64,000 nucleotides of DNA, taken from assembly GCF_022846255.1 (NCBI RefSeq), contig NZ_AP025682.1, one strand, 5' to 3'. The stretch comes from Escherichia coli (GTDB lineage: Bacteria > Pseudomonadota > Gammaproteobacteria > Enterobacterales > Enterobacteriaceae). The translations under genes and the position numbers were made by a program. The notes below the pieces were generated by a model that was not told the origin of the DNA, made no database searches, and saw only the letters and a list, made by a program, of their open reading frames with translations. Below, piece after piece: positions 18,651 to 64,000 of the stretch (position 1 is its first letter; the number at the start of each line of letters is the position of its first letter).

Positions 18651-18669
18651 TAGACAGGAGACAGTCACA

Positions 18670-36345: not shown

Positions 36346-36347
36346 GA

Positions 36348-45753: not shown

Positions 45754-48700
45754 ACTCCTGCTTGTTCAAAATAATATTGATAGATTACCCCTAATTGCTG
45801 CGGGGCTTGCTGATAGTGGAATTCAAAAAGCGCAGACAGTTGATGTATCAAGTTATTATCTTTTTGGGTTAACAGCGCTGCGACTAACATCAAATTAAAA
45901 CGTTTTTCAAGCCGTGAGTGATATTTATCTTCAATCCAAAGCTTATTAAAAACAGATTTTAACTCTGGAGTAATAGCACTAGACCAAAGTTCTTTAGGGA
46001 AGATACTGATACGCCCAAAGCTGTCGGGGTTCCTTAATAGCATCTGTTTAGCTTCATTAAACTGCTCACGACTAACAGTTGGCAAGACATTACAACCGGC
46101 TGGTAGGAGTTCGCCATATGTAAGTAACATATTCGCAATGGGAGCCAGACGACGATCGATATGTGCACGATGGTTCATAAAAGCAATAAAGGGTTGCAAT
46201 ATATGTAATGCTAATGTTTTATCGTTAATCTGTTTTTCCAGATAAGCCCAACACTTTTGAAAAACATCTTTCCAGATTGAAACGGGAATCCATCCCCATG
46301 AAAAGGGTAATTCTTCCTGTATATCATAAATCGTATCGCTATCACCAGAAAGACATGATGATATTAACAACTGAACAACTACGCGGTAATTACTCGAAAT
46401 ACCTCTGAACAAATCCAGATCCAGCAAGGATAAGCCATTATTCATTTTGTATTTCTTAATATACTCCGTTAATAAACAGCAATAATTTTGCAAAGGATTG
46501 TTATCTATTTCAAAAATTAGCTCATTAAAATATTTTTTTCGCTGTTCGGAATCCGCTTCGCATAGAGCATTAAGTAATAAATCATTTGTCTGTAATACAG
46601 GTAGCCCCCATTTAATTACTGGTGCAATGCGAGCTGTACCATCAAGTTTCCCCACAATTAACCATGGGCTATCCTGAACATTCAGAGCTGAAAGATCATA
46701 AGCAAATTCATCTTTTTTTAGCAACGATATGTGTAAGCCAGGATCCTTAAGAGAAATAGCATCAACAACCAGCTCGTCTATTCTATTTGCAGGAAAAACA
46801 ACAGAATTTTTTATATCAACCAGTAACCCTTGATCGTGTTCAATAAAACTACCATCGTAGCGTTTAATACTGAGTGTTGCTTTATCCTTTCCAAATCTGT
46901 CAGAGTAAAAATCAACACATAATGTACTATTGCTGTTCCATGCACATGCCAGCATAGCATTTAGCAAATTATAGTTCTCATAAAGTGAAATTTGTTTTAA
47001 TTTGTCATTGCATCCTGATAAAAGAGGAAGGTCGGCATGTAAATAACGGAATTTTTCAGCTACTGGATTTTCATCCAACAACTCGATATTAAGATATCCT
47101 CTTCCAGCACAAGATATGGTTAACAACTCAGCATCTATTCCATGCAAATGCGCTATAGATGCCACACCATCAAAATGAACAGAACCATCATGAGTTACAA
47201 ATCGGCCACCGCTAACCGGCTTAGGTAATAATAGTTTAAGATTAGAACCATCTTTCCAGGAGACCCGTAAATCAACGGTATTTTCCAGCATCTCCGATGA
47301 ATTATAATAAATAGCACACTCGTTTTGTGAATAATCGGACTTAAGTGTTACTTTTTCATTATTTGAATATTTGTCAATTCTAGTATCCGTTATACCAGAA
47401 AGCATTATGATGCCTTGCTGAGCACTCTCAGGTATAATATTAATATCGAAGTCTGTTGGTAAAACTACAACTTTACCGCTAAATAAAACCTCATCATTAA
47501 CTATTCGTCTGACTTCTATCTGTCCTTTTGGCATTTCTGATGCGACAGAATACCAGGCATTGTTACCTGAACGAATGGAACGCCAAAAAAGTTCTTTCTC
47601 CGGTACAATGCCATATTGCAGATCCTTTTTCCAACCGATCTTCGGCCAGGCTCGATGGACAGGATAATCCGATTTAACCAGTTCAACTTCTGTCGATTTA
47701 ATATAATATTCAATCGCAGAATCATAAAGTTGCTGGGTGCGAATTGTACAAACTGCACCATCATGTAAAACAACGCTAAATACTCCACTTATTTTAGTTA
47801 AGCTGCGTTCACTGTTTTTCAGCAACCTTGGGATATCAAACTCACCTTCTCCACTAATATCTAAATGGCTATTTTTCGGTAGCGAAATAAACAGAGCATT
47901 TAGCCTGGAACTCACAGACCCCATACCGACAAGTTTTAGCTGCGATTCACTCTCATTCATCGCTTCAAAAACCCAGGGGAGTTCTTCAGTAAGTTCATAA
48001 CCGCCTTTTGGAATTGTGTGGCCTAACAGAATTGGACCTTCATGAAGCGACAACGAGATTTCGGCCATTGCATCTGCACCAGAGAGCTTTTGCATCGCAA
48101 TAGGTAATAACTCGACCCGCCAATCTTGCTGCTCATAACGGCTTAGCATTGCCAACCTTGCCCCGCCATTTCTCCATTTTCCTGAAATGATGAGTCGGGT
48201 CTGCTCCGGCTGAATATTGCATTCAAACAAAGAGGTTAACTGTTCTGTACGCATTATGGCCGGGAATCGGAACCGGGCATCACAATACCAACTGTCATCA
48301 ACATCGACCCAGATTCTTTCAACCTGAAGACTACTTGCACTGCGTATTTCAGAAGATTGAGAAAGTAATCGCCTTACAATCTCTGCAGCATTCGCTTCGG
48401 GGAGAACGAGTGGAAGTTGAAGATGCCAGTCTGGAGAGAGCTTACGTAATGCAGAAACGGGATCACTGCTTTGAGGTGGATGCTCACTAAGTAATCGGCA
48501 GAGAGTCTCGCAGAATTCACCGGCTATTTCATAGACCAGTTCGTTTTGCATTGTGACAGGAATCGTATCGCCTAATTCTTGTGCAATTTTAGCGGCAGGA
48601 TATTGAGATGCTTGCCCACGAAGCGCCTGATATATCCTTCTGAAATAGGTAATCAAATAACCGCTCTCATTTTCAATCATGCGGATAGGTAAACCACCTT

Positions 48701-49103
48701 CACAAGCCAGTGTATGCAGATAACCCGAAGCTTGCCCCAGGTTTCTTATCTTTCTTTTCCAGTAGCGAATGCCATCATTAACCAGCTTCTGTTGATGAAC
48801 ATACGGAACTTTCCAGTCAATAGAATCTAAAATTGTGTCCCATTTAGGGTGTCCGACCGTATGAGTCCGGCGGATAAACTCTGCGGCATATATGCTAAAT
48901 AGAACATCGCTATAGGAAATGAATATCGTTCTTGGATAACTACGGGGGGCATATGTACGCAGTAGTTCTGCCAAACTTTCGTACTCTGTATCAGTACAAC
49001 GGTAAGCATATAACGCCCGTCCATCAGCTCCGGATAATGAACGGCGACTAAAAAACATGTTAAGCCATTGCAAAAGTGGGTTAACTGGAGTTTTCACAAG
49101 CAA
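45744..49103 (-). CDS. druH: Large protein without recognisable motifs, consistent with Druantia type III DruH (1119 aa)
   Basis: Assigned only by size, absence of known motifs and tight coupling upstream of the DruE-like gene. Confidence 0.5.
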   Translation of the reverse strand: MLVKTPVNPLLQWLNMFFSRRSLSGADGRALYAYRCTDTEYESLAELLRTYAPRSYPRTIFISYSDVLFSIYAAEFIRRTHTVGHPKWDTILDSIDWKVPYVHQQKLVNDGIRYWKRKIRNLGQASGYLHTLACEGGLPIRMIENESGYLITYFRRIYQALRGQASQYPAAKIAQELGDTIPVTMQNELVYEIAGEFCETLCRLLSEHPPQSSDPVSALRKLSPDWHLQLPLVLPEANAAEIVRRLLSQSSEIRSASSLQVERIWVDVDDSWYCDARFRFPAIMRTEQLTSLFECNIQPEQTRLIISGKWRNGGARLAMLSRYEQQDWRVELLPIAMQKLSGADAMAEISLSLHEGPILLGHTIPKGGYELTEELPWVFEAMNESESQLKLVGMGSVSSRLNALFISLPKNSHLDISGEGEFDIPRLLKNSERSLTKISGVFSVVLHDGAVCTIRTQQLYDSAIEYYIKSTEVELVKSDYPVHRAWPKIGWKKDLQYGIVPEKELFWRSIRSGNNAWYSVASEMPKGQIEVRRIVNDEVLFSGKVVVLPTDFDINIIPESAQQGIIMLSGITDTRIDKYSNNEKVTLKSDYSQNECAIYYNSSEMLENTVDLRVSWKDGSNLKLLLPKPVSGGRFVTHDGSVHFDGVASIAHLHGIDAELLTISCAGRGYLNIELLDENPVAEKFRYLHADLPLLSGCNDKLKQISLYENYNLLNAMLACAWNSNSTLCVDFYSDRFGKDKATLSIKRYDGSFIEHDQGLLVDIKNSVVFPANRIDELVVDAISLKDPGLHISLLKKDEFAYDLSALNVQDSPWLIVGKLDGTARIAPVIKWGLPVLQTNDLLLNALCEADSEQRKKYFNELIFEIDNNPLQNYCCLLTEYIKKYKMNNGLSLLDLDLFRGISSNYRVVVQLLISSCLSGDSDTIYDIQEELPFSWGWIPVSIWKDVFQKCWAYLEKQINDKTLALHILQPFIAFMNHRAHIDRRLAPIANMLLTYGELLPAGCNVLPTVSREQFNEAKQMLLRNPDSFGRISIFPKELWSSAITPELKSVFNKLWIEDKYHSRLEKRFNLMLVAALLTQKDNNLIHQLSALFEFHYQQAPQQLGVIYQYYFEQAGVCH

Positions 49104-49314
49104 CCTGCCTTCCTTTGATACAATTCGTAACAGGTTACTATCATCATAAAAAAGCTCAACCCGATGAACTCGCTAAAAATGAGACAAATCATTTATATCT
49201 CGAAAAAACTTGTTACAATCATGAGCGCTACACCGAACTTAACCATATAAATTATGTGTGTTTTGTTTATTTTTTAAACAATTACAACTATCCATTATTT
49301 ACACAGGTATCAAA

Positions 49315-50967
49315 ATGTTAGCGCAGCTTTTTGAGCAGTTGTTTCAATCGATAGACTCTACACTGATCACCAATATTTTCATCTGGGCTGTTATATTCGT
49401 ATTTTTATCAGCGTGGTGGTGTGACAAAAAAAATATACATAGTAAGTTTAGAGAATATGCTCCAACCTTAATGGGGGCATTAGGTATTCTGGGTACTTTC
49501 ATTGGTATTATTATTGGGTTACTCAATTTTAATACTGAAAGTATTGATACCAGCATCCCCGTATTATTAGGCGGCCTAAAAACAGCATTCATTACAAGCA
49601 TTGTAGGTATGTTTTTTGCCATTTTATTTAATGGAATGGATGCTTTCTTTTTTGCCAATAAACGAAGTGCGTTAGCAGAAAATAACCCTGAATCTGTTAC
49701 ACCTGAACATATCTATCATGAATTAAAAGAGCAGAACCAGACTCTGACTAAATTAGTCTCGGGTATTAACGGTGATAGTGAAGGTTCTCTTATTGCTCAA
49801 ATAAAATTACTACGTACTGAGATTAGCGATTCCTCGCAGGCACAATTAGCTAATCACACTCATTTCAGTAATAAGCTTTGGGAACAACTTGAACAATTTG
49901 CAGATCTAATGGCAAAAGGTGCTACAGAACAAATTATTGATGCTTTACGACAAGTCATTATTGATTTTAATGAAAATTTAACTGAACAGTTTGGTGAAAA
50001 CTTTAAAGCACTTGATGCCTCTGTAAAAAAACTTGTTGAGTGGCAGGAAAATTATAAAACGCAAGTTGAGCTGATGTCAGAACAATATCAACAAAGTGTC
50101 GAGTCTCTGGTTGAAACAAAAACTGCGGTTGCCGGGATTTGGGAAGAATGTAAAGAAATTCCTCTGGCTATGTCTGAACTGCGTGAAGTGCTTCAGGTGA
50201 ACCAACATCAAATCAGCGAACTCTCCCGCCATTTAGAAACCTTTGTCGCCATCCGCGATAAAGCTACAACCGTATTACCTGAAATACAGAACAAAATGGC
50301 TGAAGTGGGTGAACTGCTGAAATCCGGAGCTGCAAATGTTAGTGCATCTCTTGAGCAAACCAGCCAGCAAATACTTCTTAATGCAGATTCAATGCGCGTG
50401 GCCCTGGATGAAGGTACCGAAGGATTCAGACAATCGGTTACCCAAACACAACAAGCATTTGCCTCGATGGCACATGATGTCAGCAATTCCTCCGAAACTC
50501 TAACCAGCACGTTAGGTGAAACAATTACTGAAATGAAACAAAGTGGTGAAGAATTCCTGAAGTCACTAGAGTCGCACTCGAAAGAATTGCATAGAAATAT
50601 GGAACAAAATACGACTAATGTAATTGATATGTTCAGTAAGACTGGTGAAAAGATTAACCATCAACTATCCAGTAATGCCGATAATATGTTTGATTCAATC
50701 CAGACATCATTTGATAAGGCAAGTGCAGGGCTGACTTCTCAAGTCAGAGAATCAATTGAAAAATTTGCTCTATCCATCAACGAGCAGTTACATGCTTTTG
50801 AGCAAGCAACTGAACGTGAGATGAACCGTGAAATGCAATCATTAGGTAATGCTCTGCTTTCAATCAGCAAAGGTTTTGTCGGTAACTATGAAAAACTTAT
50901 TAAAGATTACCAAATAATTATGGGGCAGTTACAAGCATTAATTTCTGCTAATAAACATCGAGGGTAA
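49315..50967 (+). CDS. zorA: Zorya ZorA (MotA/ExbB-like proton-channel subunit with long coiled-coil tail), ~550 aa from MLAQLFEQ
   Basis: N-terminal transmembrane helices (IFIWAVIFVFLSAWW, LMGALGILGTFIGIIIGL, AFITSIVGMFFAILF) followed by ~400 aa of heptad-like, low-complexity helical sequence; zorB and zorE follow. Confidence 0.75.
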   Translation: MLAQLFEQLFQSIDSTLITNIFIWAVIFVFLSAWWCDKKNIHSKFREYAPTLMGALGILGTFIGIIIGLLNFNTESIDTSIPVLLGGLKTAFITSIVGMFFAILFNGMDAFFFANKRSALAENNPESVTPEHIYHELKEQNQTLTKLVSGINGDSEGSLIAQIKLLRTEISDSSQAQLANHTHFSNKLWEQLEQFADLMAKGATEQIIDALRQVIIDFNENLTEQFGENFKALDASVKKLVEWQENYKTQVELMSEQYQQSVESLVETKTAVAGIWEECKEIPLAMSELREVLQVNQHQISELSRHLETFVAIRDKATTVLPEIQNKMAEVGELLKSGAANVSASLEQTSQQILLNADSMRVALDEGTEGFRQSVTQTQQAFASMAHDVSNSSETLTSTLGETITEMKQSGEEFLKSLESHSKELHRNMEQNTTNVIDMFSKTGEKINHQLSSNADNMFDSIQTSFDKASAGLTSQVRESIEKFALSINEQLHAFEQATEREMNREMQSLGNALLSISKGFVGNYEKLIKDYQIIMGQLQALISANKHRG

Positions 50968-50973
50968 TCGATC

Positions 50974-51681
50974 ATGGATAAGATTATAGGGAAACAATTA
51001 CCTAAAAAAGATCAAGATAATGAACACTGGGTATCCATGTCAGACCTAATGGCAGGGCTGATGATGGTTTTTATGTTCATATCTATTGCTTATATGCACT
51101 ACGTACGTATTGAAAAAGAAAAAATTAAAGAAGTTGCCGTAGCCTACGAGAATGCTCAGTTACAGCTTTATAATGCTCTGGATATTGAGTTTGCAAAGGA
51201 TTTGCAAGACTGGGATGCAGAGATCGATAAGCAGACTCTGGAGGTTCGATTTAAATCACCGGATGTTTTATTTGGCTTAGGAAGCATAGAGCTTAAACCA
51301 AAGTTTAAACTCATTCTTGACGACTTCTTTCCTCGCTACCTAAAAGTTCTTGATAATTATCAAGAACATATTACTGAAGTCCGCATTGAAGGTCACACAA
51401 GTACTGACTGGACTGGAACAACGAATCCTGATATTGCTTATTTTAATAATATGGCACTATCACAAGGTCGTACACGTGCAGTATTACAATACGTTTATGA
51501 TATAAAAAATATCGCGACACACCAACAATGGGTTAAAAGTAAATTTGCCGCAGTAGGTTATTCATCTGCACATCCCATTCTTGATAAAACCGGCAAGGAG
51601 GATCCTAATCGCTCTCGTCGTGTCACCTTCAAAGTTGTAACAAATGCCGAGTTGCAGATTAGAAAGATTATTCAGGAGTAA
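50974..51681 (+). CDS. zorB: Zorya ZorB (MotB-like with OmpA-type peptidoglycan-binding domain), 235 aa
   Basis: Single N-terminal TM helix (LMAGLMMVFMFISIAYM) and OmpA/MotB-like C-terminal domain (RIEGHTSTDW..., ...LSQGRTRAV..., RRVTF). Confidence 0.8.
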   Translation: MDKIIGKQLPKKDQDNEHWVSMSDLMAGLMMVFMFISIAYMHYVRIEKEKIKEVAVAYENAQLQLYNALDIEFAKDLQDWDAEIDKQTLEVRFKSPDVLFGLGSIELKPKFKLILDDFFPRYLKVLDNYQEHITEVRIEGHTSTDWTGTTNPDIAYFNNMALSQGRTRAVLQYVYDIKNIATHQQWVKSKFAAVGYSSAHPILDKTGKEDPNRSRRVTFKVVTNAELQIRKIIQE

Positions 51682-51684
51682 GAG

Positions 51685-52788
51685 ATGAAATTATCTATCG
51701 ACATTTCAGAACTTATTCAATTAGGGAAGAAAATGTTACCAGAAGGAGTCGATTTTTTTCTGGATGAATCCCCTATTGACTTTGATCCTATAGATATTGA
51801 GTTATCCACGGGTAAAGAAGTTAGTATCGAAGATCTTGACCCTGGTAGCGGGCTTATCTCTTATCATGGCCGCCAGGTTCTTTTATATATTAGGGACCAT
51901 TCAGGGCGTTATGATGCGGCTATCATCGATGGCGAAAAAGGAAAACGTTTTCATATTGCCTGGTGCAGAACTCTTGATGAAATGCGCCATAAAAATCGAT
52001 TTGAAAGGTATCATGCAACTAACCGCATAGATGGTTTATTCGAAATTGATGATGGTTCAGGTCGGAGCCAGGATGTTGATTTACGGGTATGTATGAATTG
52101 TCTGGAACGACTTAATTACAAAGGAAGTATTGATAAACAAAGGAAAAGAGAGATTTTTAAATCATTCTCATTAAATGAGTTTTTTTCAGATTATAGTACC
52201 TGTTTTCGTCATATGCCTAAGGGTATCTATGACAAAACAAATAGTGGGTATGTCGAAAACTGGAAAGATATATCAAAATCAATACGAGAAAAGGCCAAGT
52301 ATACTTGTAATGATTGTGGTGTGAATTTATCAACCGCCAAAAACTTGTGCCATGTCCATCATAAAAATGGCATCAAATATGATAATCACCATGAAAACCT
52401 TCTTGTTCTGTGTAAGGATTGCCATCGTAAACAGCCCCTCCATGAAGGTATATTCGTTACCCAAGCTGAGATGGCTATCATTCAACGTTTACGTTCCCAA
52501 CAAGGGTTATTAAAAGCCGAATCCTGGAATGAAATATATGACCTGACTGATCCATCAGTACATGGTGATATTAATATGATGCAACATAAAGGCTTTCAAC
52601 CTCCTGTTCCTGGGTTAGATCTTCAAAACTCAGAACATGAAATTATTGCAACCGTAGAAGCAGCATGGCCAGGCCTTAAAATTGCAGTTAACCTTACTCC
52701 CGCCGAAGTCGAAGGATGGAGAATATATACCGTGGGTGAGCTGGTTAAAGAAATACAAACAGGAGCCTTTACGTCAGCAACGTTGTAA
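51685..52788 (+). CDS. zorE: Zorya type II ZorE (HNH endonuclease), 367 aa
   Basis: HNH signature CNDCG...HVHHKNG...NLLVLCKDCH; third gene directly after zorA/zorB. Confidence 0.75.
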   Translation: MKLSIDISELIQLGKKMLPEGVDFFLDESPIDFDPIDIELSTGKEVSIEDLDPGSGLISYHGRQVLLYIRDHSGRYDAAIIDGEKGKRFHIAWCRTLDEMRHKNRFERYHATNRIDGLFEIDDGSGRSQDVDLRVCMNCLERLNYKGSIDKQRKREIFKSFSLNEFFSDYSTCFRHMPKGIYDKTNSGYVENWKDISKSIREKAKYTCNDCGVNLSTAKNLCHVHHKNGIKYDNHHENLLVLCKDCHRKQPLHEGIFVTQAEMAIIQRLRSQQGLLKAESWNEIYDLTDPSVHGDINMMQHKGFQPPVPGLDLQNSEHEIIATVEAAWPGLKIAVNLTPAEVEGWRIYTVGELVKEIQTGAFTSATL

Positions 52789-52799
52789 ATTCCGAAACT

Positions 52800-52835
52800 C
52801 CGTGAAAGTTAAGGCTTTCACGGAAGATAAATATA
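52800..52835 (+). terminator. Terminator-like hairpin after zorE
   Basis: ccgtgaaag-ttaagg-ctttcacgg 9-bp stem 12 nt after the zorE stop, followed by an AT-rich tract. Confidence 0.45.
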
Positions 52836-52998
52836 ATTTTCCTGATTTGTGACTCAAATTACAAAAGTCGTTTATGGCATAACTTGTCTGTTTTTTTTGG
52901 TGTAATAGGTATAAAGGCATATGCTATGGTTAGCCTTATATTTAAAACTTTCCTCATACGGGTGAAGGTTAAAGATTGGTAGATAGGTTACAGTCACA

Positions 52999-53607
52999 AT
53001 GAATAAAGCAATAACGGTGCTTGCTATAATGATGGCTTCATTTTCCGTAAATGCGTATGTATTACCGGAAACGCCTGTGCCATTTAAAAGTGGTACCGGA
53101 GCAATTGATAACAACACTGTCTACATTGGTTTAGGTAGCGCAGGTACGGCATGGTACAAGCTGGAGAAACAGACCAAAGATAAAAAATGGACAGCGTTAG
53201 CTGCATTTCCTGGTGGACCGAGAGATCAAGCAACTTCTGCATTTATTGATGGCAATCTGTATGTGTTTGACGGCATTGGCAAAAACAGTGAGGGCTTGAC
53301 TCAGGTATTTAATGACGTTCACAAATACAACCTCAAAACCAATAGCTGGGTTAAATTGATGTCGCACGCGCCGATGGGCATGGCGGGTCATGTGACATTT
53401 GTACACAACGGCAAGGCTTATGTTACTGGCGGTGTTAACCAGAATATCTTCAATGGCTATTTTGAAGATCTTAACGAAGCTGGAAAAGATTCAACATACC
53501 GAACGCCGGAGAACTGGACGACGACACCACGAAGCAGTCATTTCAGTCGGGGGATGATTGTAGACAAATTTGTTGACGCTATTTTGCGGTTTTGGCGTGA
53601 AGGGTGA
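52999..53607 (+). pseudogene. Chimeric nanM'-'nanS remnant (first ~165 codons of a nanM homologue fused to the last ~37 codons of a nanS homologue)
   Basis: 52999-53493 aligns at roughly nine in ten bases (by eye) with nanM 18670-19166; 53494-53607 aligns with the nanS 3' end 20695-20821 minus a short deletion; a GGTATA-type motif lies ~95 bp upstream. Confidence 0.75.
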
Positions 53608-53661
53608 GCATTCATTAATTTGATTTATTTGCATCCATCAACGCTTTTAACTGCTCCGGCG
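53494..53661. repeat. Right copy of the diverged direct repeat bounding the island
   Basis: Matches 20695-20875 (see left copy); similarity ends at ...ctgctccggcg in both copies. Confidence 0.7.
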
Positions 53662-54193
53662 AAAACGGTGGTTTGCGTCGGTGCAACATCGCATGGCAAT
53701 TAGGGCACACAGGAAGCAAATCATTAACTGGATCCAGCTGGTAATTCTCTTTAATGGCTGAAAGCGGCACCAGGTGATGCACATGGATAAAGCCTTCAGC
53801 GATATCACCATAGATCTTCACCAGATCAACGCCGCATACGTTGCACTGGCATCCATGATGTTCGACCGCTTTATCTCGGGCCTTTTTATCGCGTTCATAG
53901 CGGTTTACTGTCACCTTTATCGCCGCACTTTCAACGTATGTCTCCTGCGACGGCAACTCATCCGGGAACAGAACGTCGGCTATGGGAGCCGCAGCGGCTT
54001 TATCCAGATGAATATGAAATCCCTGCTCTATGAGTAGCTTGAGACATTTAGATTTTATTCCGCCGGTGAAATCCGCAGGGGTAAATTGCGTCCCCGTCAT
54101 CAATGTCGCTGCGATGCCAGCAATCGCCTTCGAGGGGTAACGTCGGCCATGAATACAACCGCGCAGGCTGGAACTGATGAGTTTCTCCCGCAT
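53615..54193 (-). CDS. HNH endonuclease-domain protein (192-aa ORF; probably the 3' part of a frameshifted longer gene together with the overlapping ORF 54048-54254)
   Basis: HNH motif HGCQCNVCG...HVHHLVPLS...LLPVCPNCH; an overlapping upstream ORF in another frame (MNKLPDHLPRRYIIEAIHLWDAGE...) suggests a frameshift; its last ~15 codons are also present in the left repeat copy after nanS. Confidence 0.6.
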   Translation of the reverse strand: MREKLISSSLRGCIHGRRYPSKAIAGIAATLMTGTQFTPADFTGGIKSKCLKLLIEQGFHIHLDKAAAAPIADVLFPDELPSQETYVESAAIKVTVNRYERDKKARDKAVEHHGCQCNVCGVDLVKIYGDIAEGFIHVHHLVPLSAIKENYQLDPVNDLLPVCPNCHAMLHRRKPPFSPEQLKALMDANKSN

Positions 54194-54333
54194 CCCATAA
54201 ATGGATAGCTTCGATGATATACCGCCGCGGAAGATGATCGGGGAGTTTATTCATGGAGAATGTCCTTATACGTTCTCAGAACAGGCAGCAAAAAAACAAA
54301 TGAGATCAAGGTAATATATCTTCACTTGCAGGC

Positions 54334-55263
54334 TTGAACAGCAGAAAATTTGCGAGCATGATCGCAATTATTTCACTGCCAGGGATATCAATGGCTTCCA
54401 GTAAATCGCTACAGCAGGCAATTGCCAATATAAAAATCTGGCACAAGGGTGAACAGCGCGCGCCGCATAAGCCATTGTTATTGCTATATATATTAGCGGG
54501 ATACCTGAATGGACATCCGCGCCTTTTCGATTATGGCTCGGAAATCTACGAACCTCTGCACAGTTTACTGGAACGTTTTGGGCCACAGCGTTCACAGTAC
54601 CGACCTGATATGCCGTTCTGGCGATTACAAGGCGACGGATTCTGGCAATTACACAATGCCGAGCTTTGCTCAACAGCAGGGAGCAGCCGACAACCACCAG
54701 TGAAGGAACTGACTGAATACCACGTTGCAGGCGGTTTCGATGAACAGCACTACGCCCTGGTAACTGGCAATAAAAAACTCATCAATACTCTGGCGCAACA
54801 GATACTCGAAGCGCACTTCACCGAGAGTATTCAGGAAGAAATTGCTGACGAGCTGGGTTTTGATCTCCAGCAAATCCGTAAACAGCGCGACCCGTTATTT
54901 CGCAAAAATGTATTACGCGCTTATAACTACCAGTGCGCGATATGTGGCTTTAATATGCGCCACGACGACACCACCGTCGCGCTGGAAGCGGCGCATATAA
55001 AATGGAAACAGCACGGCGGTCCTTGTGAAATTCCTAATGGCCTGGCGCTTTGCGCAATTCACCATAAAGCCTTTGATAAAGGATCGATTGGCCTGGATGA
55101 AAATATGCGGGTACTGGTATCAGATGCGGTAAACGGCGGAGGGATCGTTGAGAAACTATTCTGGGATTTTGACGGGAAAACTATTGCTTTGCCGCAGGTA
55201 CGTAAAAATTACCCTTATGAGGGATTTGTGGAGTGGCATCGAAAAGAGGTTTTTAGGGGGTGA
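54334..55263 (+). CDS. HNH nuclease-domain protein with an uncharacterised N-terminal domain (309-aa ORF; start uncertain)
   Basis: C-terminal HNH-like motif YQCAICGF...EAAHIKWKQHGG...ALCAIHHKAFDKG; N-terminal ~180 aa has no motif I can name. Confidence 0.55.
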   Translation: MNSRKFASMIAIISLPGISMASSKSLQQAIANIKIWHKGEQRAPHKPLLLLYILAGYLNGHPRLFDYGSEIYEPLHSLLERFGPQRSQYRPDMPFWRLQGDGFWQLHNAELCSTAGSSRQPPVKELTEYHVAGGFDEQHYALVTGNKKLINTLAQQILEAHFTESIQEEIADELGFDLQQIRKQRDPLFRKNVLRAYNYQCAICGFNMRHDDTTVALEAAHIKWKQHGGPCEIPNGLALCAIHHKAFDKGSIGLDENMRVLVSDAVNGGGIVEKLFWDFDGKTIALPQVRKNYPYEGFVEWHRKEVFRG

Positions 55264-55373
55264 GGTTGATAATACCGCGCCCCTATAATCTTGCCATCTC
55301 GTGCATTGAGATGTTAAAAGCTACAAATGTTCTCCCTATTTTTCAATGTAGACATTTATAGCAATATCAAAAT

Positions 55374-56372
55374 TTATTGTTCAGCTTTTTCAACAACAAA
55401 ACCATTTTGCCGTACAAACTCAATCAAGAGTTCAATATTAACAATGCCCCATTGATTAGAAATAGCAACAATTTCACCAGAGGGAAGTGTAATCAACGCA
55501 TCTTCATTAATATGATAGCGACTTTTTTGCTTCTCTGGTATCTGATCGATAAGCATAACCGTACGTTTTTTAAAGTCATCACTTAATCCATTTATTAAAT
55601 CATTATAACTTGCAGGATTAAATTGTCTTATCCAATCACGTAATAATTCAAGCGCTAATTTACGTTTATTAAGTTCTTTATCTTTATATATATACCACGT
55701 ATAGTCCTTCTCTTTTTTCTGACTGCTAATTAGCTGTTCATCACGTTTTTCACGAAATTTAACTTGATATTCTTCCAATTCAGGAACCGGTATGATTTGC
55801 TCTGCATTGATTAGAACATCATCATTAAATCTATAAGGCGTCAGACGAACACATCGAATGTCTACCCCCTTATCTCTTAACCAAATCGCAGTGGTAGTCA
55901 GTTCCTTGCTAAAATCCGATGATGCCAAAACAATTCTGATATCTTTTCCGAAATCAACAAGCTCAGTTTCATCCAATTCAACAAATTCAAGTATTTTTTC
56001 TTTCGCATCGGCATCGCAGTTTTGTTTTTTCAAATACGTCTGGAAATATTCACATGCTTTCGCAAAACTCATTGTGGAAATCATCGCCGCATATCGTAGT
56101 GCCTGTAACTCCATATGCGCCCCCGTTTCATCACGTTTTAATTCGATAACCACTAAATTTGCCTGTTTATCGATTGCCAATAAATCAATTCGCCGACGGC
56201 TATCTTCCCAGTCAGAAAACTCTTCGGAAATCACCAGACAATCAGGAGCAATAATATCTATATTTTTTTTGATTGCTTCCTGTAAATCATAACGTTCCTG
56301 TAATCCTTCCAGAGTAAATGTCGTTTTTTCTAAAGCATGTAGTTCTTTATTTGCGATATTGTACAGCGCCAC
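55374..56372 (-). CDS. PD-(D/E)XK-superfamily nuclease-like protein (332 aa), function unknown
   Basis: Candidate PD-(D/E)XK motif RIDLLAIDKQANLVVIELKRDE in the N-terminal third; co-directional with jetD 126 bp upstream. Confidence 0.45.
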   Translation of the reverse strand: MALYNIANKELHALEKTTFTLEGLQERYDLQEAIKKNIDIIAPDCLVISEEFSDWEDSRRRIDLLAIDKQANLVVIELKRDETGAHMELQALRYAAMISTMSFAKACEYFQTYLKKQNCDADAKEKILEFVELDETELVDFGKDIRIVLASSDFSKELTTTAIWLRDKGVDIRCVRLTPYRFNDDVLINAEQIIPVPELEEYQVKFREKRDEQLISSQKKEKDYTWYIYKDKELNKRKLALELLRDWIRQFNPASYNDLINGLSDDFKKRTVMLIDQIPEKQKSRYHINEDALITLPSGEIVAISNQWGIVNIELLIEFVRQNGFVVEKAEQ

Positions 56373-56498
56373 GTTTATCTTCCTTTTTTAACTGATTTTA
56401 CAGGGACTTTAACACAGTAAAAATTTTATTTCCTGAGCTGTAATCGATTAAGCTGATGCATTCAATGGGAATGATATCACCTAAAAAGCACATTATGA

Positions 56499-57554
56499 CT
56501 ATATAAATAAACCTAAAGAAGCCACACCTTCTTGGGGTAGACGCTGGTGGATCGCCAGAAGAGTCTTCATTTCTCGTAAAACAAACTTTGGCATCCAGCC
56601 ACACTGTAACTCGAAATCAAACCGTTCGTTGTTGGCGTTCCCTTCCGCTGTCATCAGGCCATTTAAGATCAGTTTATTATAAAGCCATTCATCTAAATGC
56701 AAGCTGATACCGTAATCATTAAGCAACTTACAACGCAACTGATGAGCGATTTTTAAGCCCGCAACATCCAGATCGCCAAAATAAAGTAGTTGTTCTACCT
56801 GTTCGACCTCAAGGAGTTGTGACACGCACTCCGCCTGACCGGAAACTTTGTTACCTGCGCCATAAATGACCAGTGACCAGCGAGTCTGTGCTCGATTAAG
56901 TTGGCATAGCCGATAATACACATCGGAGTTTTCAACAATGATAGCCGGAAGATCATGGCAACGAGATGACTCATACGGTAAAGGCGGCGCACGTCGAAAC
57001 GCGCCCATATCAGCCAAAGTCAGAGTGACATGCTTCCAGCCATCAGGTGGCAAGGAGTCCAGAGCTTTTTCGTCACCAAATATAAGCAGAGACCGCTCAC
57101 GATGTCCAAGCAAGCCCGGGAATAGCGACTTGTCGCCCCCGGTTTGGCGAAAAAGATATGTATTCAGCTGTTGTAAGCGTGCCTTGATTGGCTGGGTAAG
57201 TTGTCCTGTAATACGTCGGGCCAACCAGGGATGCCAGGCTATTTCTGATGTTGTCTTCGTAGGAACGATGGCACCTTCGTAAACAAAAGTACTTGGCAGG
57301 CTCATACCCCGCCAGTAACGCTGCCAACTCGCTTTGTGCTTAGGTTGAGCCCGCCAGTCCCTTTCAAGCAGTTGCGTAACAGCCTGACTCAGCAAATCAG
57401 GCACCTCCTGGCTCAAGGCCTCTTGATTGTGTGCGCGTAATACCTCATCCAGCACCGCATTAGCTTTCACTGTACGCACGGCCTTACCAGCGGCAAGACG
57501 ATGTTTATTGGCTGTCGACTCCAGTCGGGATAGCCAGATCATTACGCTACTCAT
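56499..57554 (-). CDS. jetD: Wadjet JetD-like protein (Toprim-type nuclease subunit), 351 aa
   Basis: Candidate Toprim acidic motif (LLYFGDLDVAGLKIA) and position immediately after the SMC-like gene. Confidence 0.65.
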   Translation of the reverse strand: MSSVMIWLSRLESTANKHRLAAGKAVRTVKANAVLDEVLRAHNQEALSQEVPDLLSQAVTQLLERDWRAQPKHKASWQRYWRGMSLPSTFVYEGAIVPTKTTSEIAWHPWLARRITGQLTQPIKARLQQLNTYLFRQTGGDKSLFPGLLGHRERSLLIFGDEKALDSLPPDGWKHVTLTLADMGAFRRAPPLPYESSRCHDLPAIIVENSDVYYRLCQLNRAQTRWSLVIYGAGNKVSGQAECVSQLLEVEQVEQLLYFGDLDVAGLKIAHQLRCKLLNDYGISLHLDEWLYNKLILNGLMTAEGNANNERFDFELQCGWMPKFVLREMKTLLAIHQRLPQEGVASLGLFI

Positions 57555-57566
57555 CTCATATCAACC

Positions 57567-60500
57567 TTAAATGACTGGATCGAACTGTGGCTTAGCAGCC
57601 AGAGAAGCCGCCCACAGGGCATGGCGTTCTTTATCAACGGTTACCAAATCGCGCCGCCTCAGTTTTTGAACTTTATTCAGGAAGAGATGGTTATCAAACA
57701 TTGATTGGGCGTTTTCATCCGAAATACCAGTCAGGTAGATGAGCTGGATTTTATAGGCTTTGGCCATTTGGGTTTGAATGCGCATTAGATCATTGGCATT
57801 CGATTTACCCAGCGGGTTATCGGCTAACAAGAATCCTGCACTTGAAATACCCGTATCGTACTCTCGTACTTTACCAACCGTCACAAACAGTAAAAAGGCA
57901 GATGTAAGGCGCTGTCCACCCGAACCTTCAAGTCGGGTGACAGGAGTCCATTGTGGACGGCTGGCATTCGTCTTCAGCAAACGCACCTCCAGTTCCCCTT
58001 CGCCAAATACCGACTGAACCAAATCAGCTGTCAAGGCGTCCCGATTGGGCGCTCGGGGTATCTGTCCCCTGGCTATCCACTGCTGCAAGCGGCTGCTGGC
58101 AAAACCCCTGATATCAGCGGCAACATCATTCAACCGGTCGGTCATTTTAATAATGGGCCGACCAGGCAGTACGGGGCAATCCTCAGGAATTTTGACCGAC
58201 ATCGCGCGCCTGAGAAGCTTAATCGCCCCTTCCAGATGAGCAGTCAGATGGGTGACAGTCAGATCAATCGAACGTTGGAATTGCTCGAGGCTGTCCTGCA
58301 CAGCTTCGAATACCTGCGAGATCCCTGTACCGACCCTCTCCAAATCGCCCAGCACTTCATGATAAGTTGCGATTGAGTCCAACGGCCGTAAGTATTCCTG
58401 ACTGGCTCGGGCGTCTGGATCCTTGGCCAACTCTTCTTCGATGCGTTTGCGGAATTTTCCCCAGACCGTAGAGACGCGCATATTTTGCTGTTTTAGCGTT
58501 TCATTTAAACCGGCATACACTTGGCATTGTGCAGCCAGATCGTCAGCATATTCTGTGATGCTCAGGATCCTACCAGGTAGACCTGCGGCAGAGCTCGGCG
58601 TAATGGGCTGGATCATCGCTTGAGCTGTTTTGGCGTTCTGTAGCCGCTCTTTCACATTTTCAATCTTTCTCAACAGCAGTGTCTTTTGTTCCAGTAGGAA
58701 CTTGATCTGGTGTTCAATCGCATAAAGGTTATTGACGATTTCAGCCAGAGACGTTTGGATTGCCTCTATCTCAATGGGCTTCTCTTCCCAGACAAAATCC
58801 TCGTCAAGTGCTTTACTAGCCTCCTCACAGCTTTGGGAAAATTTTTGCAGAGTTACCTGAGAGCTAATTAGATTTTGCGTGAATTGCTTTTGCTGTTCTT
58901 TGAGGCGTACGATGCTGTTATTAATTACCGTTAGCTCATTGATGGCCGCAGCTTTTACCTCATCCGGATATGTATTGTAGGTGGGTTGAGCGGTCAAACG
59001 ATCAGAGGCGTAACGTTGTGCCTGTTCAGCATCTTTCAGTTGTTGCTTGAGAACGGTCACTTGATCACCGTTGGCTGCTTCGAGCAATTTTTTGTGCGCC
59101 TGAGCAGCCATCTCATGGGCATATTCAGGGCTTCGTCCTTCCATACCTTCAGTCGCCGTAATCTCTGAATAGAACGGTTCGTTACACAGATTACTCCAGC
59201 TACCTATCTGGATAATTAAAAGGGTTTTCTCGGAGCGTTTGTTCTTCTCGAGCTCGCTCAGCCGTTCCAGCCTCTCTCTCTGGGTGTAAAGAGTGTTCTT
59301 GCTTCGCTGAATCTGTGCAGCTAACTGCTCCAGTTTCATTATCGCCGTTTCACGCTTCGCCCATTCTTTTTCTACAAAAAGACTCACTTTATCATGTGCT
59401 TTTTCTGCCTGAATTTTCTGCTGTTGGGCGTTGTTTAAACGCACCTGGACATCTCTCTTCTCGTCACGCAGTGTTTGCTCATCATGCTCAGCTTGCTTAA
59501 GTGCTGCATCAGCATTTTCCAGTATTAATAGAGCCAGCTCCCGTTGGTCAAGCAGTCCCGCCCAATGCTTACCATACTGTTCGTAATGCCGACTCCAGTC
59601 ATTCCTGAAAGATTCCAGTACTTTAAGGGCGCTCTCCGCAGCCTTCACACTGACTTCCTGCGACGCTACGGTATTCTCCAGGTCTTGCAGCCGGGTTTCG
59701 TAAGCGGCCTGGCTATATCCGTGCTTATCGGGGTTTGAGAGGACAACCTGTACTAATTCAGACGTTTCTCGGCGGAGATCTTGTGCTTCATCCAGCAAGT
59801 AAATAGCAATAGGTGCCTTCTTCCAGGGTAGGATCTCACTAATTTTATGGACCTGTTCAAACGTTACATTGTCGAGTGCGACCAGGCTCAGGTAGCGGCC
59901 AGGGTTCTGATCGATCACCGCTGCAATCTTTTGTGCATCATCGTTGTGAGCAGAGGCCAAATAGTGTGGAAATGTCCATAGCTTATCCCGTGCAATGCCC
60001 GCAGCATAAAACGCTTCAAGTGCCTCATTGACCTGCTTAGCAACCAGTTCATGTCCCGTCACCCTCAACTCGTCCAGTTCGTGCCGGGCTTGCAGTAAAC
60101 GCTCTTTCATTCCATTCAGCGTTTGAGCGTTCGCATTCAATACTTTGTCGAGCTGCAATCCACACAGCTCGCTGTGCCAACTCGTGTCTTCAATATCCAG
60201 ATCATGTCGCGTTGACGATGGCAGTTTTTGATAGGTTTTTGCTAAAAGTAAGGCACTATCCACAGCTGACTGGTGTTTTTGTTTAGCCAGAATGAGTTTT
60301 TGCTGGGCCTCACTTTTCTCAATTGATGCCTCCCGCACAACATTCAGCTGTGCTTCCAGCGCCTGCTCTTTCTGATGAAGAATTGTATTAGCCAGTTCTT
60401 CACTCTGCTTTGCATCGCGTAAGGTTAATTCCAGTCGGTATTGGGCTGCTACTGGTGTTTCATCCTTCTGGATCAACCCAGCTTCACATAATTCATTCCG

Positions 60501-62003
60501 TTGCGATTCGCCCTGAAATTTGTCTCTTTTATATCCGTCACGCTCCGTTTCCAGACCACCCAACGTCTTTTGTAGTTTATCGTATGACTGTCTGAGGACA
60601 TGGCTTTCCCTGTCCATCTGCCCTAATTCTTCCTCAAGCGTAGCCTCCTGCTGGCGATGTCTGTCGATTGCCCACTCTAATGTGCCCAAGGCTTCGCCAG
60701 CAGTACGCTCGAAAATCACCTGTAGCGGCCTTTCCGTTTCACTTTGGAATACCTTCAGATCTTCATCTGCCTGGCGGTACTCATTCAGGGCCTTAGCATA
60801 GGCTTTGTAGTCTATAGCAGCGTGAGTAATCTCAATCTGGTGCTGATTGGTATCGGCTTCGTCTTGAAGCGCATCGACTATCGCTTTTTGTTTGTCGAAC
60901 TGATGCTGCACGAGATCATATTCAAGCAGTGCTCTGCGCTTACCTAACTGCTCACGCAGAGACATCGCCTGGCCAATATGTGTTTGCAAACTATCCATGT
61001 TATCTTCAAGCTGCGTCTGTTCAACCTGAGCATCCCCGACAAAGGCTGCGAGATCGCGCATTGCTTCTCGGAAGCCATCATCCAGCAGTTGCTGCTGTGC
61101 CTGGATGCTTTCCAGCTGTTTAGCCGGATCAAGAAACGCCAGCCAGTTAGCCAGCACATCCTTCAGGAAGGACTCGTTACGACGAATCCCCTCTAACTCT
61201 CCCTGACGCTCAACTTCATGCGCTACCAGTTCCCGCAGCCGCTCAGCCGCATCTTTAGACATGGTGCAGGCGAAGAACGCGCCAAGGAAATCATGTTCAG
61301 TTTTGTATTCGATAAAACGGGTCAGGCCACCTTCTTCGGAGTTGAAGGTCACCATTGTTTTGATAAGATCAACGTTAATTTGTTGTTCCAGTAAAAATGC
61401 GCGCCACTCGTTCTGTCTGGTGGTTTTACGCCAATGCATACCGCCTTCACTACCGGCCTTGAGATTAAGCCAGCTATCAAAACTGCGCAGGCTATTGGCA
61501 TAGGGGCGCAGCTCAGAATTGCGTTCCGCGCGGGAATAAGAAGGGACTTCATCAAACGGCGCGCCCATCAGGGAGTCGGGCGCATCACAAATAAACAGTG
61601 TCCGGTCAACATCATCTCCATTACGCTGATGAGCATGTCCTAGTAATAACGTTTGTCCTGATTCATTGACCATCTCAACCAAAACAACAGAGAGTTCTTT
61701 ATAGAAGTAATTGCGGTAGTGGTATTCACTCTGGCGATGATTTGCCAGATATTGGGTGAAGTCACTAACGGACGGCTCAAAAATCGATAACAGCAGCGCG
61801 ATGTAGGTCGACTTACCACCCCCATTCACAAGCTGCTGATAAGTACTGGTCACCACCTTCGCATTCCTGACGGGCGAGCGCAGACCTTCAACAACAGGGC
61901 TACTGACCGCTTGAGACAGGCCAATATAGTCCAGTGTGAGGTCCTTGTAGAAAGCTTCTTCATGGCCTGCACCATCCATATAAACCCGTTTAATCAGCCA
62001 CAT
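57567..62003 (-). CDS. jetC: Wadjet JetC-like SMC-family ABC ATPase (MksF/MukB-like), 1478 aa
   Basis: N-terminal Walker A (VNGGGKSTY), ~1000 aa of coiled-coil-like sequence, C-terminal ABC signature (LEGSGGQR) and Walker B-like (FLLADNP). Confidence 0.7.
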   Translation of the reverse strand: MWLIKRVYMDGAGHEEAFYKDLTLDYIGLSQAVSSPVVEGLRSPVRNAKVVTSTYQQLVNGGGKSTYIALLLSIFEPSVSDFTQYLANHRQSEYHYRNYFYKELSVVLVEMVNESGQTLLLGHAHQRNGDDVDRTLFICDAPDSLMGAPFDEVPSYSRAERNSELRPYANSLRSFDSWLNLKAGSEGGMHWRKTTRQNEWRAFLLEQQINVDLIKTMVTFNSEEGGLTRFIEYKTEHDFLGAFFACTMSKDAAERLRELVAHEVERQGELEGIRRNESFLKDVLANWLAFLDPAKQLESIQAQQQLLDDGFREAMRDLAAFVGDAQVEQTQLEDNMDSLQTHIGQAMSLREQLGKRRALLEYDLVQHQFDKQKAIVDALQDEADTNQHQIEITHAAIDYKAYAKALNEYRQADEDLKVFQSETERPLQVIFERTAGEALGTLEWAIDRHRQQEATLEEELGQMDRESHVLRQSYDKLQKTLGGLETERDGYKRDKFQGESQRNELCEAGLIQKDETPVAAQYRLELTLRDAKQSEELANTILHQKEQALEAQLNVVREASIEKSEAQQKLILAKQKHQSAVDSALLLAKTYQKLPSSTRHDLDIEDTSWHSELCGLQLDKVLNANAQTLNGMKERLLQARHELDELRVTGHELVAKQVNEALEAFYAAGIARDKLWTFPHYLASAHNDDAQKIAAVIDQNPGRYLSLVALDNVTFEQVHKISEILPWKKAPIAIYLLDEAQDLRRETSELVQVVLSNPDKHGYSQAAYETRLQDLENTVASQEVSVKAAESALKVLESFRNDWSRHYEQYGKHWAGLLDQRELALLILENADAALKQAEHDEQTLRDEKRDVQVRLNNAQQQKIQAEKAHDKVSLFVEKEWAKRETAIMKLEQLAAQIQRSKNTLYTQRERLERLSELEKNKRSEKTLLIIQIGSWSNLCNEPFYSEITATEGMEGRSPEYAHEMAAQAHKKLLEAANGDQVTVLKQQLKDAEQAQRYASDRLTAQPTYNTYPDEVKAAAINELTVINNSIVRLKEQQKQFTQNLISSQVTLQKFSQSCEEASKALDEDFVWEEKPIEIEAIQTSLAEIVNNLYAIEHQIKFLLEQKTLLLRKIENVKERLQNAKTAQAMIQPITPSSAAGLPGRILSITEYADDLAAQCQVYAGLNETLKQQNMRVSTVWGKFRKRIEEELAKDPDARASQEYLRPLDSIATYHEVLGDLERVGTGISQVFEAVQDSLEQFQRSIDLTVTHLTAHLEGAIKLLRRAMSVKIPEDCPVLPGRPIIKMTDRLNDVAADIRGFASSRLQQWIARGQIPRAPNRDALTADLVQSVFGEGELEVRLLKTNASRPQWTPVTRLEGSGGQRLTSAFLLFVTVGKVREYDTGISSAGFLLADNPLGKSNANDLMRIQTQMAKAYKIQLIYLTGISDENAQSMFDNHLFLNKVQKLRRRDLVTVDKERHALWAASLAAKPQFDPVI

Positions 62004-62005
62004 AC

Positions 62006-62902
62006 TTAAATCTCCGTCAAGCGTTGCGTTTCTGTGGTTCCAGTTGTAACTGGACGTTCATTGAGCGAAGGAAACTCCAGGGTATCTGCTAATGCTGCAA
62101 GATCGCTTTCAGCTAAATCGGACGACCGTTCTTCTACGGCTGGACTGATGCTCATGACAAAGCGCACCGTCTCTTCGATGCCAGTATGGCGCAGATAATG
62201 TTTGAGTTTTTGGGTCGGATACCAGTCGGACTCTCCCGACAAACTGCTGTCTTCGGCCAGAAAGCCTTCCTCCTGCAGCAGTTGTATCCAGCGCGTTGCC
62301 ATTTCTGTTTGCGAGCGAATACTTGAGACACGCCCTACCTTTTCGTCGTGAATACGGGGAATACGTTCTTCCTGCACAAACCTGGCCGCCATAAGTAGGC
62401 CATCTACGGTATCGTCACCCTCGGCCTTGCGCTGGGCAATCACCTGGTCGGCAACATTATTGAGCCTGGCTACCACCGAGGCTGCATTAATGGCGTTACT
62501 CTGACCGAACTCGACACGAACGGTGTCTGGAGTTGGAAACAAATCAGCCAGCAACGCAATCAGAGTTAAGCCTGCAAACAGGCGCTGTTCTTTCCGTTCC
62601 TTACCCTGTTGCTCAGCCATTGTTTCAGGTAGCAAGCGTTTGTTCAGCCAACCCAAAGATGGGGAAAACGGACCTCGGCCATCTGCAGCCAGTAATACCC
62701 CGTAGGTCTCATGAATCCCGAGATACCGCAATTTCATACCTGTCGCGACGCCACGGATAATCTCTGTGAACAGGGCATCACCTTGCAGATCAAGAGCACG
62801 TTGAATCAGCTCATCCCCCATTTTATATCCCAGTGAATTCATAATTGCCTGCGTGGCAATCTCGGCGTAGCGTTTAGTTTGTTGATGCGCGTTGTCGTAC
62901 AT
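62006..62902 (-). CDS. jetB: Wadjet JetB-like (MksE-like) subunit, 298 aa
   Basis: Acidic ~300-aa protein between the jetA-like and SMC-like genes; assignment by synteny and size. Confidence 0.55.
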   Translation of the reverse strand: MYDNAHQQTKRYAEIATQAIMNSLGYKMGDELIQRALDLQGDALFTEIIRGVATGMKLRYLGIHETYGVLLAADGRGPFSPSLGWLNKRLLPETMAEQQGKERKEQRLFAGLTLIALLADLFPTPDTVRVEFGQSNAINAASVVARLNNVADQVIAQRKAEGDDTVDGLLMAARFVQEERIPRIHDEKVGRVSSIRSQTEMATRWIQLLQEEGFLAEDSSLSGESDWYPTQKLKHYLRHTGIEETVRFVMSISPAVEERSSDLAESDLAALADTLEFPSLNERPVTTGTTETQRLTEI

Positions 62903-62904
62903 AA

Positions 62905-64000
62905 CTACTCCTCAAAGGGGTATAAGGGAGCAACCGTTAACAGTTTGATATTGTTAGCCCGCCAGAGCGTTGTTTCGATAGCGCCGTCTATCTCCACTTC
63001 TATTGCGGGATCGCTGTTAGCTGCCAGGCTGCCAATATGGAGTAAACAAACCTGTTGCTCTTGTTCGGATAATTCTTCGCCCTCATAGGCGTCAAAAACA
63101 TCTCTAAAGCTCACATGCCCCCAATTCTTCAATCGGTCACTAACCCAATCGCTGCATTTTTTAATGACAGATTCAGGGATACCTCGCAGGTTGGTTTCAA
63201 TAGCTACAGGCTGATCGGTGAGGTCCTGTATCTCATGTGGAAGCGCCTGTTCAAATCTATCGAGATAAAGGTTCAGCAGCGCCTCAAGGTCAAACAGAAT
63301 GTGCCGATCATCATCCTGTCTTCGGGGAGCCAACAGGCGTGCGGTGAGATCATCGATTTCCTTTTCGACAGTGTCGGGGGAATGAGACAGCAAGGGCTTG
63401 AGTGCACCTTTTTCCAGTGTTTCCCGAAAGAGGGTATTATCTCTGGGAATAATGAGTTTCAGACGAGCTCGCTCAAAATCTTTATTCACATCCAGTAAGC
63501 AGTCTTGATAGCGCTGCGTAAAAGCGCAGACCTCAGCAAAAATCTCCTGTGCTCTACGTAGCTTATTTAATTTGTCGGGATTTAATTTCGAAATTCCTTC
63601 AACCAGCATTTCGGTAATGGCCGACATTGAGTTCTGGATATGTTCCAAAACCTCTCGGGTTTTATCAAAGGAATCATTGAGTACGGGACGGATATCGTGT
63701 GCATAAGATGCACTCAAATCACCAGACTGGGCGGCACGCACTTTCATCCGCATTCCAATCAGATATTGCTCCAGTTGCCGCTGTGTTGATTGGATTTGGT
63801 GTACTGCCTTGTCGATCTCTCCGCGACGGATCGTTTTAAGCGTGCGCCAGGCCAGAATCGCAGCGCGTTCTATCGGCGTTTCATCCAAGCGCAGGGTATA
63901 GAACAACATTCCTTCATCAGTCAGCGACCAGAGAATATCATCTGAGCCGGATAGCTGGTCATAGCGTACCAGACGGACTATCTGCTCTTCGGAATGCGTT
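62905..64000 (-). CDS. jetA: Wadjet JetA-like (MksB-like) subunit, partial; N-terminus lies beyond the window end
   Basis: Reading frame stays open from 62905 to the window edge (the track ORF starts at an internal Met at 63909); 2-bp gap to jetB. Confidence 0.55.
   Translation of the reverse strand, partial: THSEEQIVRLVRYDQLSGSDDILWSLTDEGMLFYTLRLDETPIERAAILAWRTLKTIRRGEIDKAVHQIQSTQRQLEQYLIGMRMKVRAAQSGDLSASYAHDIRPVLNDSFDKTREVLEHIQNSMSAITEMLVEGISKLNPDKLNKLRRAQEIFAEVCAFTQRYQDCLLDVNKDFERARLKLIIPRDNTLFRETLEKGALKPLLSHSPDTVEKEIDDLTARLLAPRRQDDDRHILFDLEALLNLYLDRFEQALPHEIQDLTDQPVAIETNLRGIPESVIKKCSDWVSDRLKNWGHVSFRDVFDAYEGEELSEQEQQVCLLHIGSLAANSDPAIEVEIDGAIETTLWRANNIKLLTVAPLYPFEE

Follow-up and report, generated by a model that had tools for sequence, protein, structure and literature searches.

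Restriction endonucleases that depend on DNA modification (type IV) and cut with an HNH nuclease domain are the closest described systems to the gene studied here. ScoMcrA from Streptomyces coelicolor (Protein Data Bank code 5ZMM) is a type IV enzyme of 561 residues that depends on phosphorothioate and on 5mC/5hmC. Its known specificity is carried by a sulfur-binding domain and an SRA-like domain, both situated between a head domain and the HNH domain. The head domain is described as small and flexibly tethered, with no known function (PMC6224610). EcoKMcrA, the 5-methylcytosine-specific restriction enzyme A of E. coli K-12 (6GHC), and TagI (6GHS) use the same type of nuclease domain. The SBD-HNH phosphorothioate-dependent endonucleases, such as EcoWI and SprMcrA, are likewise HNH nucleases of defence islands that contain an N-terminal sensor domain.

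The window, the whole stretch of 64,000 nucleotides that was analyzed, comes from an E. coli chromosome and is situated near the nan (sialic acid) genes. An earlier note, made from the letters alone, had described two open reading frames that overlap in different frames on the same strand, and had read them as one gene of about 240 residues split by a frameshift. Both frames are present on the minus strand, with 68 codons at 54048–54254 and 192 codons at 53615–54193, and they overlap by 146 bp (54048–54193). Codons 1–34 of the 68-aa ORF align with residues 1–34 of a single 216-aa protein that is annotated in other E. coli strains (native Met-1 to Tyr-34), after which the ORF runs out of frame for a further 34 codons and ends at a stop. 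The 192-aa ORF begins with 14 out-of-frame codons (MREKLISSSLRGCI) and continues with 178 codons that align with residues 39–216 of the same protein, from His-39 to Asn-216. A chance pair of overlapping frames was thereby ruled out, and the proposed split of one gene holds, although the intact E. coli copies have 216 residues and not about 240. The HNH motif that the earlier note had seen in the 192-aa ORF also stands, as a Pfam HNH match (PF01844, residues 117–173, E = 5.4e-5) that exceeds the gathering score.

In its entirety, the broken gene covers 53615–54254 on the minus strand and is a pseudogene of a ScoMcrA_N-HNH endonuclease. Its extent was defined by alignment to the intact 216-aa coding sequences of strains EC42405 (WP_054496419.1), KBN10P04869 (WP_001037966.1) and PD23 (WP_063815140.1), and it measures 640 nt compared with 651 nt in the intact copies. 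In RefSeq, the intact locus is annotated as a single 651-nt CDS, "HNH endonuclease," of 216 residues. In a megablast search of 5426 complete E. coli genomes, 2431 contained the region 53560–54330. Coverage of the query reached 80% or more in 1236 of them, and the matches in these copies are 11 bases longer than the window query. A homologue alignment of 50 sequences was taken from Escherichia, Citrobacter, Klebsiella, Pantoea, Pseudescherichia, Enterobacter, Shewanella and metagenomes. The earlier note had reasoned that its reading would fall if homologues started at the internal Met and did not resemble the 68-aa ORF. This is not the case for any of the 50, as the N terminus of every one is homologous to residues 1–34 of the 68-aa ORF, and Ala-16, Phe-28 and Tyr-34 are invariant.

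Alignment to the intact homologues places the frameshift between 54153 and 54152 on the minus strand, where 11 nt of the coding strand, GAGATTGAATA, are missing. These correspond to CDS nucleotides 103–113, which encode Glu-35, Ile-36 and Glu-37 and supply two bases of the codon for Tyr-38. The 11-nt gap is the sole length difference between the window gene and the three intact copies, and when the 11 nt are put back into the window gene, a 216-aa ORF results. An indel in a homopolymer had been expected, but what was found is the loss of 11 bp from non-repetitive DNA. Direct reading of the junction revealed no flanking microhomology, repeat tract or homopolymer, and the placement of the gap is unique. 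Of the 1233 complete E. coli genomes that were hit by a 70-nt probe spanning the junction, 1231 match at 86% identity and thus contain the 11 nt. The alignment of 50 homologues is free of gaps at the deleted columns, and the flanking residues Tyr-34 and Tyr-43 are invariant. Because the 11 nt are present in 1231 of 1233 genomes and none of the 50 homologues shows a gap, the state found in the window is a derived deletion.

The same allele (Δ11) occurs in other data. By exact-sequence look-up, the 68-aa product was identified as BDH35059.1 and a 161-aa product starting at native Met-56 as BDH35058.1; they come from a contig of 4,939,895 bp (a 4.94-Mb genome) and are annotated as "hypothetical protein TRECRb50_38750" and "hypothetical protein TRECRb50_38740," respectively. 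The same two products have also been deposited as GDA58369.1 and GDA58374.1, and the 192-aa ORF has been called on two ENA metagenome contigs. A 40-mer across the junction is present in an isolate draft (L006, GCA_005387665.1), which differs from the window by 3 mismatches across 3734 nt, and in two ENA metagenome assemblies (L007, 7504 nt; L008, 1047 nt) that are 100% identical to it. It is absent from five loci with intact or remnant HNH copies.

These occurrences bear on the sequencing error that the earlier note had left open as one of three options, in which the true genome would contain an intact 216-codon gene and the 11-nt gap would be an artefact of sequencing or assembly. Such an artefact would fit the observation that none of the 5426 complete RefSeq E. 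coli genomes contains Δ11 or gives a full-length ungapped match to the 70-nt junction probe; all carriers surfaced solely through exact-protein look-ups and not through complete RefSeq genomes. However, an identical junction is found in the three other assemblies, which derive from different data (one isolate and two metagenomes), and both products have been deposited from a complete genome. The missing 11 nt lie outside any homopolymer or repeat. In addition, the 18 kb surrounding the gene (46000–64000) are 99.6% identical to the nearest relative, strain PD23, with 58 substitutions and three indel events, and the two indels other than the deletion are intergenic and of 1 bp each, at 52891 and 54289. 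The gap of 11 non-repetitive nucleotides turns up again in independent data sets, within DNA that has hardly any other indels; it is an inherited mutation, and we give an error only a very slight chance. The deletion is derived, real and inherited.

The second option, a programmed shift, was considered together with reversible phase variation, as either could still deliver the full-length enzyme. The 146-nt overlap would allow this in principle, because a +1 shift anywhere in codons 35–68 rejoins the two frames. Yet no conserved shift is found among the 50 aligned relatives or the 1231 E. coli copies, all of which are single ORFs that need none. The site, TAT/TCA TGG CCG, contains on direct reading no known +1 or −1 motif, no in-frame stop and no repeat tract. 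Any shifted product would also still lack residues 35–38 of strand β1. For phase variation, a simple-sequence repeat is absent at the frame change (GAGATTGAATA is non-repetitive), and slippage cannot restore 11 lost nucleotides where flanking repeats are absent. Programmed frameshifting and phase variation were both rejected on these grounds, and together they represent the least probable account of the locus, with a practically negligible chance. The remaining option, a genuine pseudogene, is the one that the data support. The window copy is very probably an ordinary, lineage-specific pseudogene of a 216-codon HNH nuclease gene, created by the 11-bp deletion.

The 216-aa protein belongs to a family with 7054 database members at E <= 1e-5, most of which are 205–230 residues long. 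The precomputed Pfam domains of the family are PF26345, named ScoMcrA_N, and PF01844. The copy of Pfam that we scanned did not include PF26345, so that the intact protein and four homologues showed HNH only; the name ScoMcrA_N was taken from the precomputed hits and checked against the PDB by sequence and by fold. Residues 24–85 match the ScoMcrA head domain (5zmm_A residues 29–91, E = 1.5e-4), and residues 123–198 match the HNH domain of EcoKMcrA (6ghc, E = 7.6e-4). EcoKMcrA and TagI match residues ~116–198 only, and no similarity to their N-terminal domains was detected. The HNH domain most resembles, in structure and sequence matches, those of the modification-dependent (type IV) enzymes ScoMcrA, EcoKMcrA and TagI, and is thus of the type used by known type IV enzymes. 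In contrast to ScoMcrA, the protein contains neither a sulfur-binding nor an SRA-like domain, and the window copy is also frameshifted. The domain composition, like the deletion itself, is shown by the data.

An AlphaFold2 model of the intact protein, calculated with the 50-sequence alignment, has a mean pLDDT of 81.9. In the model the head is an α/β domain (α10–22, β34–38, β41–44, α45–57, α73–80 and β84–87), followed by a linker that is disordered at residues 91–97 (pLDDT <50) and then by the HNH domain. The ancestral gene encoded a 216-aa two-domain protein, with a ScoMcrA-type head of ~87 residues joined by a flexible linker to a zinc-stabilized HNH domain. The intact protein is best described as a minimal head-plus-HNH nuclease, probably a type IV-like restriction enzyme. 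It would act as a modification-dependent restriction nuclease that is targeted by the head domain. PADLOC returned weak, partial "mREase_IV" matches for the HNH protein.

The remains of the head domain, native residues 1–87, lie at 54005–54254 on the minus strand. The deletion removes the predicted strand β1 (residues 34–38) and, in the model, leaves helix α1 cut off from the other elements of the head. In the ββα-Me nuclease domain (53675–53845, minus strand) the sequence is intact: the zinc-binding Cys4 set and the motif His and Asn residues are retained. Across the 50-sequence alignment Cys-141, Cys-144, Cys-190, His-163, His-164, Asn-189, His-191 and His-195 are invariant, and Cys-187 is conserved in at least 90% of the sequences. 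The window allele retains all conserved HNH residues, including Cys-187. Both domains of the ScoMcrA_N-HNH family, the PF26345 head and the ββα-Me nuclease with its Cys4 zinc site, are therefore recognizable in the window. Members of the family are encoded by a single ORF of ~205–230 codons, however, and in the window the 11-nt deletion leaves ORFs of 68 and 192 codons in its place. The window gene thus represents a pseudogene of the family and not a working member.

On the minus strand, a Shine-Dalgarno-like AAGGA (54263–54267) precedes the native ATG (54254) by 8 nt. On direct reading, no Shine-Dalgarno sequence precedes the internal ATG at 54193 (CGAAGCTATCCATTTATGGG) or the ATG at 54100, so that of the three ATGs only the native one is preceded by such a signal. 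A promoter scan of 53400–54450 did not find a σ70-like promoter, a result that is uninformative either way. In the lineage of the window, the 11-bp deletion after codon 34 shifts the frame, translation from the native start stops after 68 codons, and the HNH domain is stranded in an ORF that has no ribosome-binding site. The split allele presumably yields no functional enzyme.

Since the HNH domain is untouched by the deletion, a truncated, untargeted nuclease could still be made. In that case the allele would be alive, and a protein of 161 or 192 residues, translated from an internal start, would serve as a nuclease or nickase, either with no targeting or with a changed target. In-frame ATGs are available at 54193 and 54100, the second of which gives the 161-aa product from native Met-56 (53615–54100, minus strand); this is the form in which the allele is annotated, as a "hypothetical protein" (BDH35058.1 and GDA58374.1). 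The nuclease domain with all its conserved residues would be included in the product, and there is a precedent in SprMcrA, which became a non-specific nicking enzyme when its sensor domain was shortened by 87 N-terminal residues (PMC7461809). Against this stand the missing Shine-Dalgarno sequences at both internal ATGs and the lack of a promoter-like site in 53400–54450. An untargeted nuclease would also be toxic and not useful, and the gene is dispensable, as its many losses and disruptions in E. coli show. A living truncated product is therefore improbable, and we retain the reading of the allele as a pseudogene.

A small ythB-like ORF of 25 codons (MNAHPSRQNRKIASTNLSTIIPRLK) lies at 53538–53615 on the minus strand and overlaps the stop codon of the HNH gene as TAATG. 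It corresponds to WP_212734751.1 in RefSeq relatives, with the precomputed Pfam domain PF23516 (YthB). Because of the TAATG overlap, translation of this ORF may be coupled to that of the HNH gene. If so, the upstream frameshift would lower the translation of the small ORF too.

The HNH pseudogene is located within a defence island. Downstream of it on the plus strand, and transcribed divergently, lies an SBD-HNH gene at 54334–55263 that encodes a "phosphorothioated DNA-binding restriction endonuclease" (NF045808, NCBIfam PT-DNA_restrict, E = 1.3e-131). This is followed on the same strand by a PDC-S11 PD-(D/E)XK nuclease (55374–56372) and a Wadjet type III system, JetD3 to JetA3 (56499–63909). 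Upstream of the pseudogene are a type II Zorya system (zorA2, zorB2 and zorE, 49258–52788) and, on the plus strand, a 202-aa ORF with a nanM fragment (52999–53607). This ORF is chimeric: its residues 23–166 are the N-terminal part of NanM (PF24996), and its tail is the 3' end of nanS in another frame. In relatives, PGAP annotates the equivalent of this ORF as a partial or frameshifted kelch/NanM pseudogene.

The HNH gene and its SBD-HNH neighbour show weak similarity at the entry of the HNH domain only (BLASTP E = 0.001, 42 residues). An obligate two-gene system of the two, as a "split ScoMcrA," was rejected because either gene is found in the absence of its partner. At loci where only a 105-bp remnant of the HNH gene is left, the SBD-HNH gene is intact, and at a locus with a full-length HNH gene it is truncated; at the Shewanella homologue of the HNH gene, no SBD-HNH neighbour is present. 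A paralogue of the HNH protein with 59% identity (P0024, 1030 collection blocks) was observed in a mobile element with integrase, AbiEi, TraI_2 and ArdC (loci L009–L012, coordinates 5001–5654 and 9744–10616), and an SBD-HNH gene lies ~4 kb from this E. coli paralogue. The recurrence of an SBD-HNH gene near the paralogue points to a loose co-occurrence of the two gene types, with neither needing the other.

The genes adjacent to the HNH gene encode nucleases, and none encodes a methyltransferase. The nearest methyltransferase, an Eco57I-type enzyme of 1644 residues (31411–36345), belongs to a DISARM-like gene set ~18 kb away (22959–39206, minus strand), which also contains a UvrD-like helicase (704 aa), a DEAD helicase of 2113 aa with MZB/DUF1998 and an SNF2 helicase of 952 aa. 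The set is found at 97–99% identity in 520 complete E. coli genomes. A conflict with this methyltransferase was considered as the cause of the loss of the HNH gene. It was rejected because the two coexist in relatives: at least 14 close genomes contain the cluster (97.8–99.2% identity) together with an intact HNH gene.

Two direct repeats link the pseudogene region to a distant part of the window. The 5' part of nanM at 18650–19166 (517 bp, 94% identical) is repeated at 52979–53495, and a segment of 184 bp comprising the ends of nanS and the HNH gene (20692–20875, 81.5% identical) is repeated at 53490–53661. The latter segment includes a second 3' HNH remnant of ~47 bp (20822–20875), which directly follows the stop codon of an intact nanS at 20821 and encodes a peptide ending in TPEQLKALMDANKSN before its stop. 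Given these direct repeats at 52979–53661, a ~32-kb block (20876–52978) is bracketed by diverged repeats of the nan/HNH junction. The block contains a UDG-like gene, the DISARM-like cluster, a 2107-aa DEAH helicase, a YjiT-like protein and the Zorya II system.

The HNH gene has been broken independently in other E. coli lineages, by a +1A insertion, a −1C deletion, a stop codon at position 41 and a large deletion. Roughly 1,200 of the 5426 complete genomes keep just the 3' part of the gene, as a result of the large deletion. In S10 and E24377A the remnant is annotated as a 105-bp "HNH endonuclease, missing N-terminus" beside an intact SBD-HNH gene; 105-bp remnants are situated at 3502–3606 of locus L004 and 3540–3644 of L005. 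A 161-aa "HNH endonuclease" starting at Met-56 has been deposited from 123 contigs, and the loci read among them carry three different lesions. These are +1A at CDS nucleotide 109 (L014, L017 and L018, and also RefSeq strain 94_0962), −1C at CDS nucleotide 129 (L015), and CGA to TGA at codon 41, which replaces Arg-41 with a stop (L016). Small lesions of this sort are rare in complete genomes: a 79-mer covering the lesion sites is found unchanged in 784 of 1234, and the other 450 differ from it at 1–3 positions.

Substitutions were also noted. Many full-length E. coli alleles have a tyrosine in place of the zinc ligand Cys-187 (VYPNCH versus VCPNCH), among them that of KBN10P04869 (L002 4635–4637) and proteins P0001, P0124, P0127 and P0132; the homologous codon of the window is at about 53705–53707. 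Counts with a 61-mer gave 943 exact matches of the Tyr type and 115 of the Cys type, figures that are confounded by partial matches from remnants and serve as an indication only. With tyrosine at a zinc ligand, some HNH copies that are annotated as intact may be inactive. The window allele itself contains V75L and G113S. Position 113 is a glycine in at least 90% of the homologues, and its replacement in the Δ11 allele fits a relaxed constraint.

The family is already annotated in E. coli, and the pseudogene itself is of an ordinary kind. Like other frameshift pseudogenes of accessory and defence islands, it shows a derived, irreversible small deletion in a dispensable gene with parallel lesions elsewhere, and there is no notable difference from them. 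A more speculative interpretation is that the head domain may be the sole specificity module of a stand-alone restriction nuclease, and that the repeated inactivation reflects selection against self-attack and not neutral decay. The lesions in question would be Δ11, +1A, −1C, R41*, the large deletion with its 105-bp remnant and the widespread C187Y substitution. We consider this interpretation unlikely. If it were true, the locus would provide a natural loss-of-function allele series for recognition by the head domain.

For annotation, both ORFs should be described as one frameshifted pseudogene, where GenBank now has two "hypothetical proteins," and in counts of defence systems the strain should not be credited with an HNH nuclease. 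The wider value is limited to the intact alleles and does not extend to Δ11. Because the head-plus-HNH family, with >7,000 relatives at E ≤ 1e-5, is uncharacterized and its gene decays recurrently in E. coli, an intact allele is suited to learning the role of the ScoMcrA head domain, and a minimal head-HNH protein could reveal the function of that domain.
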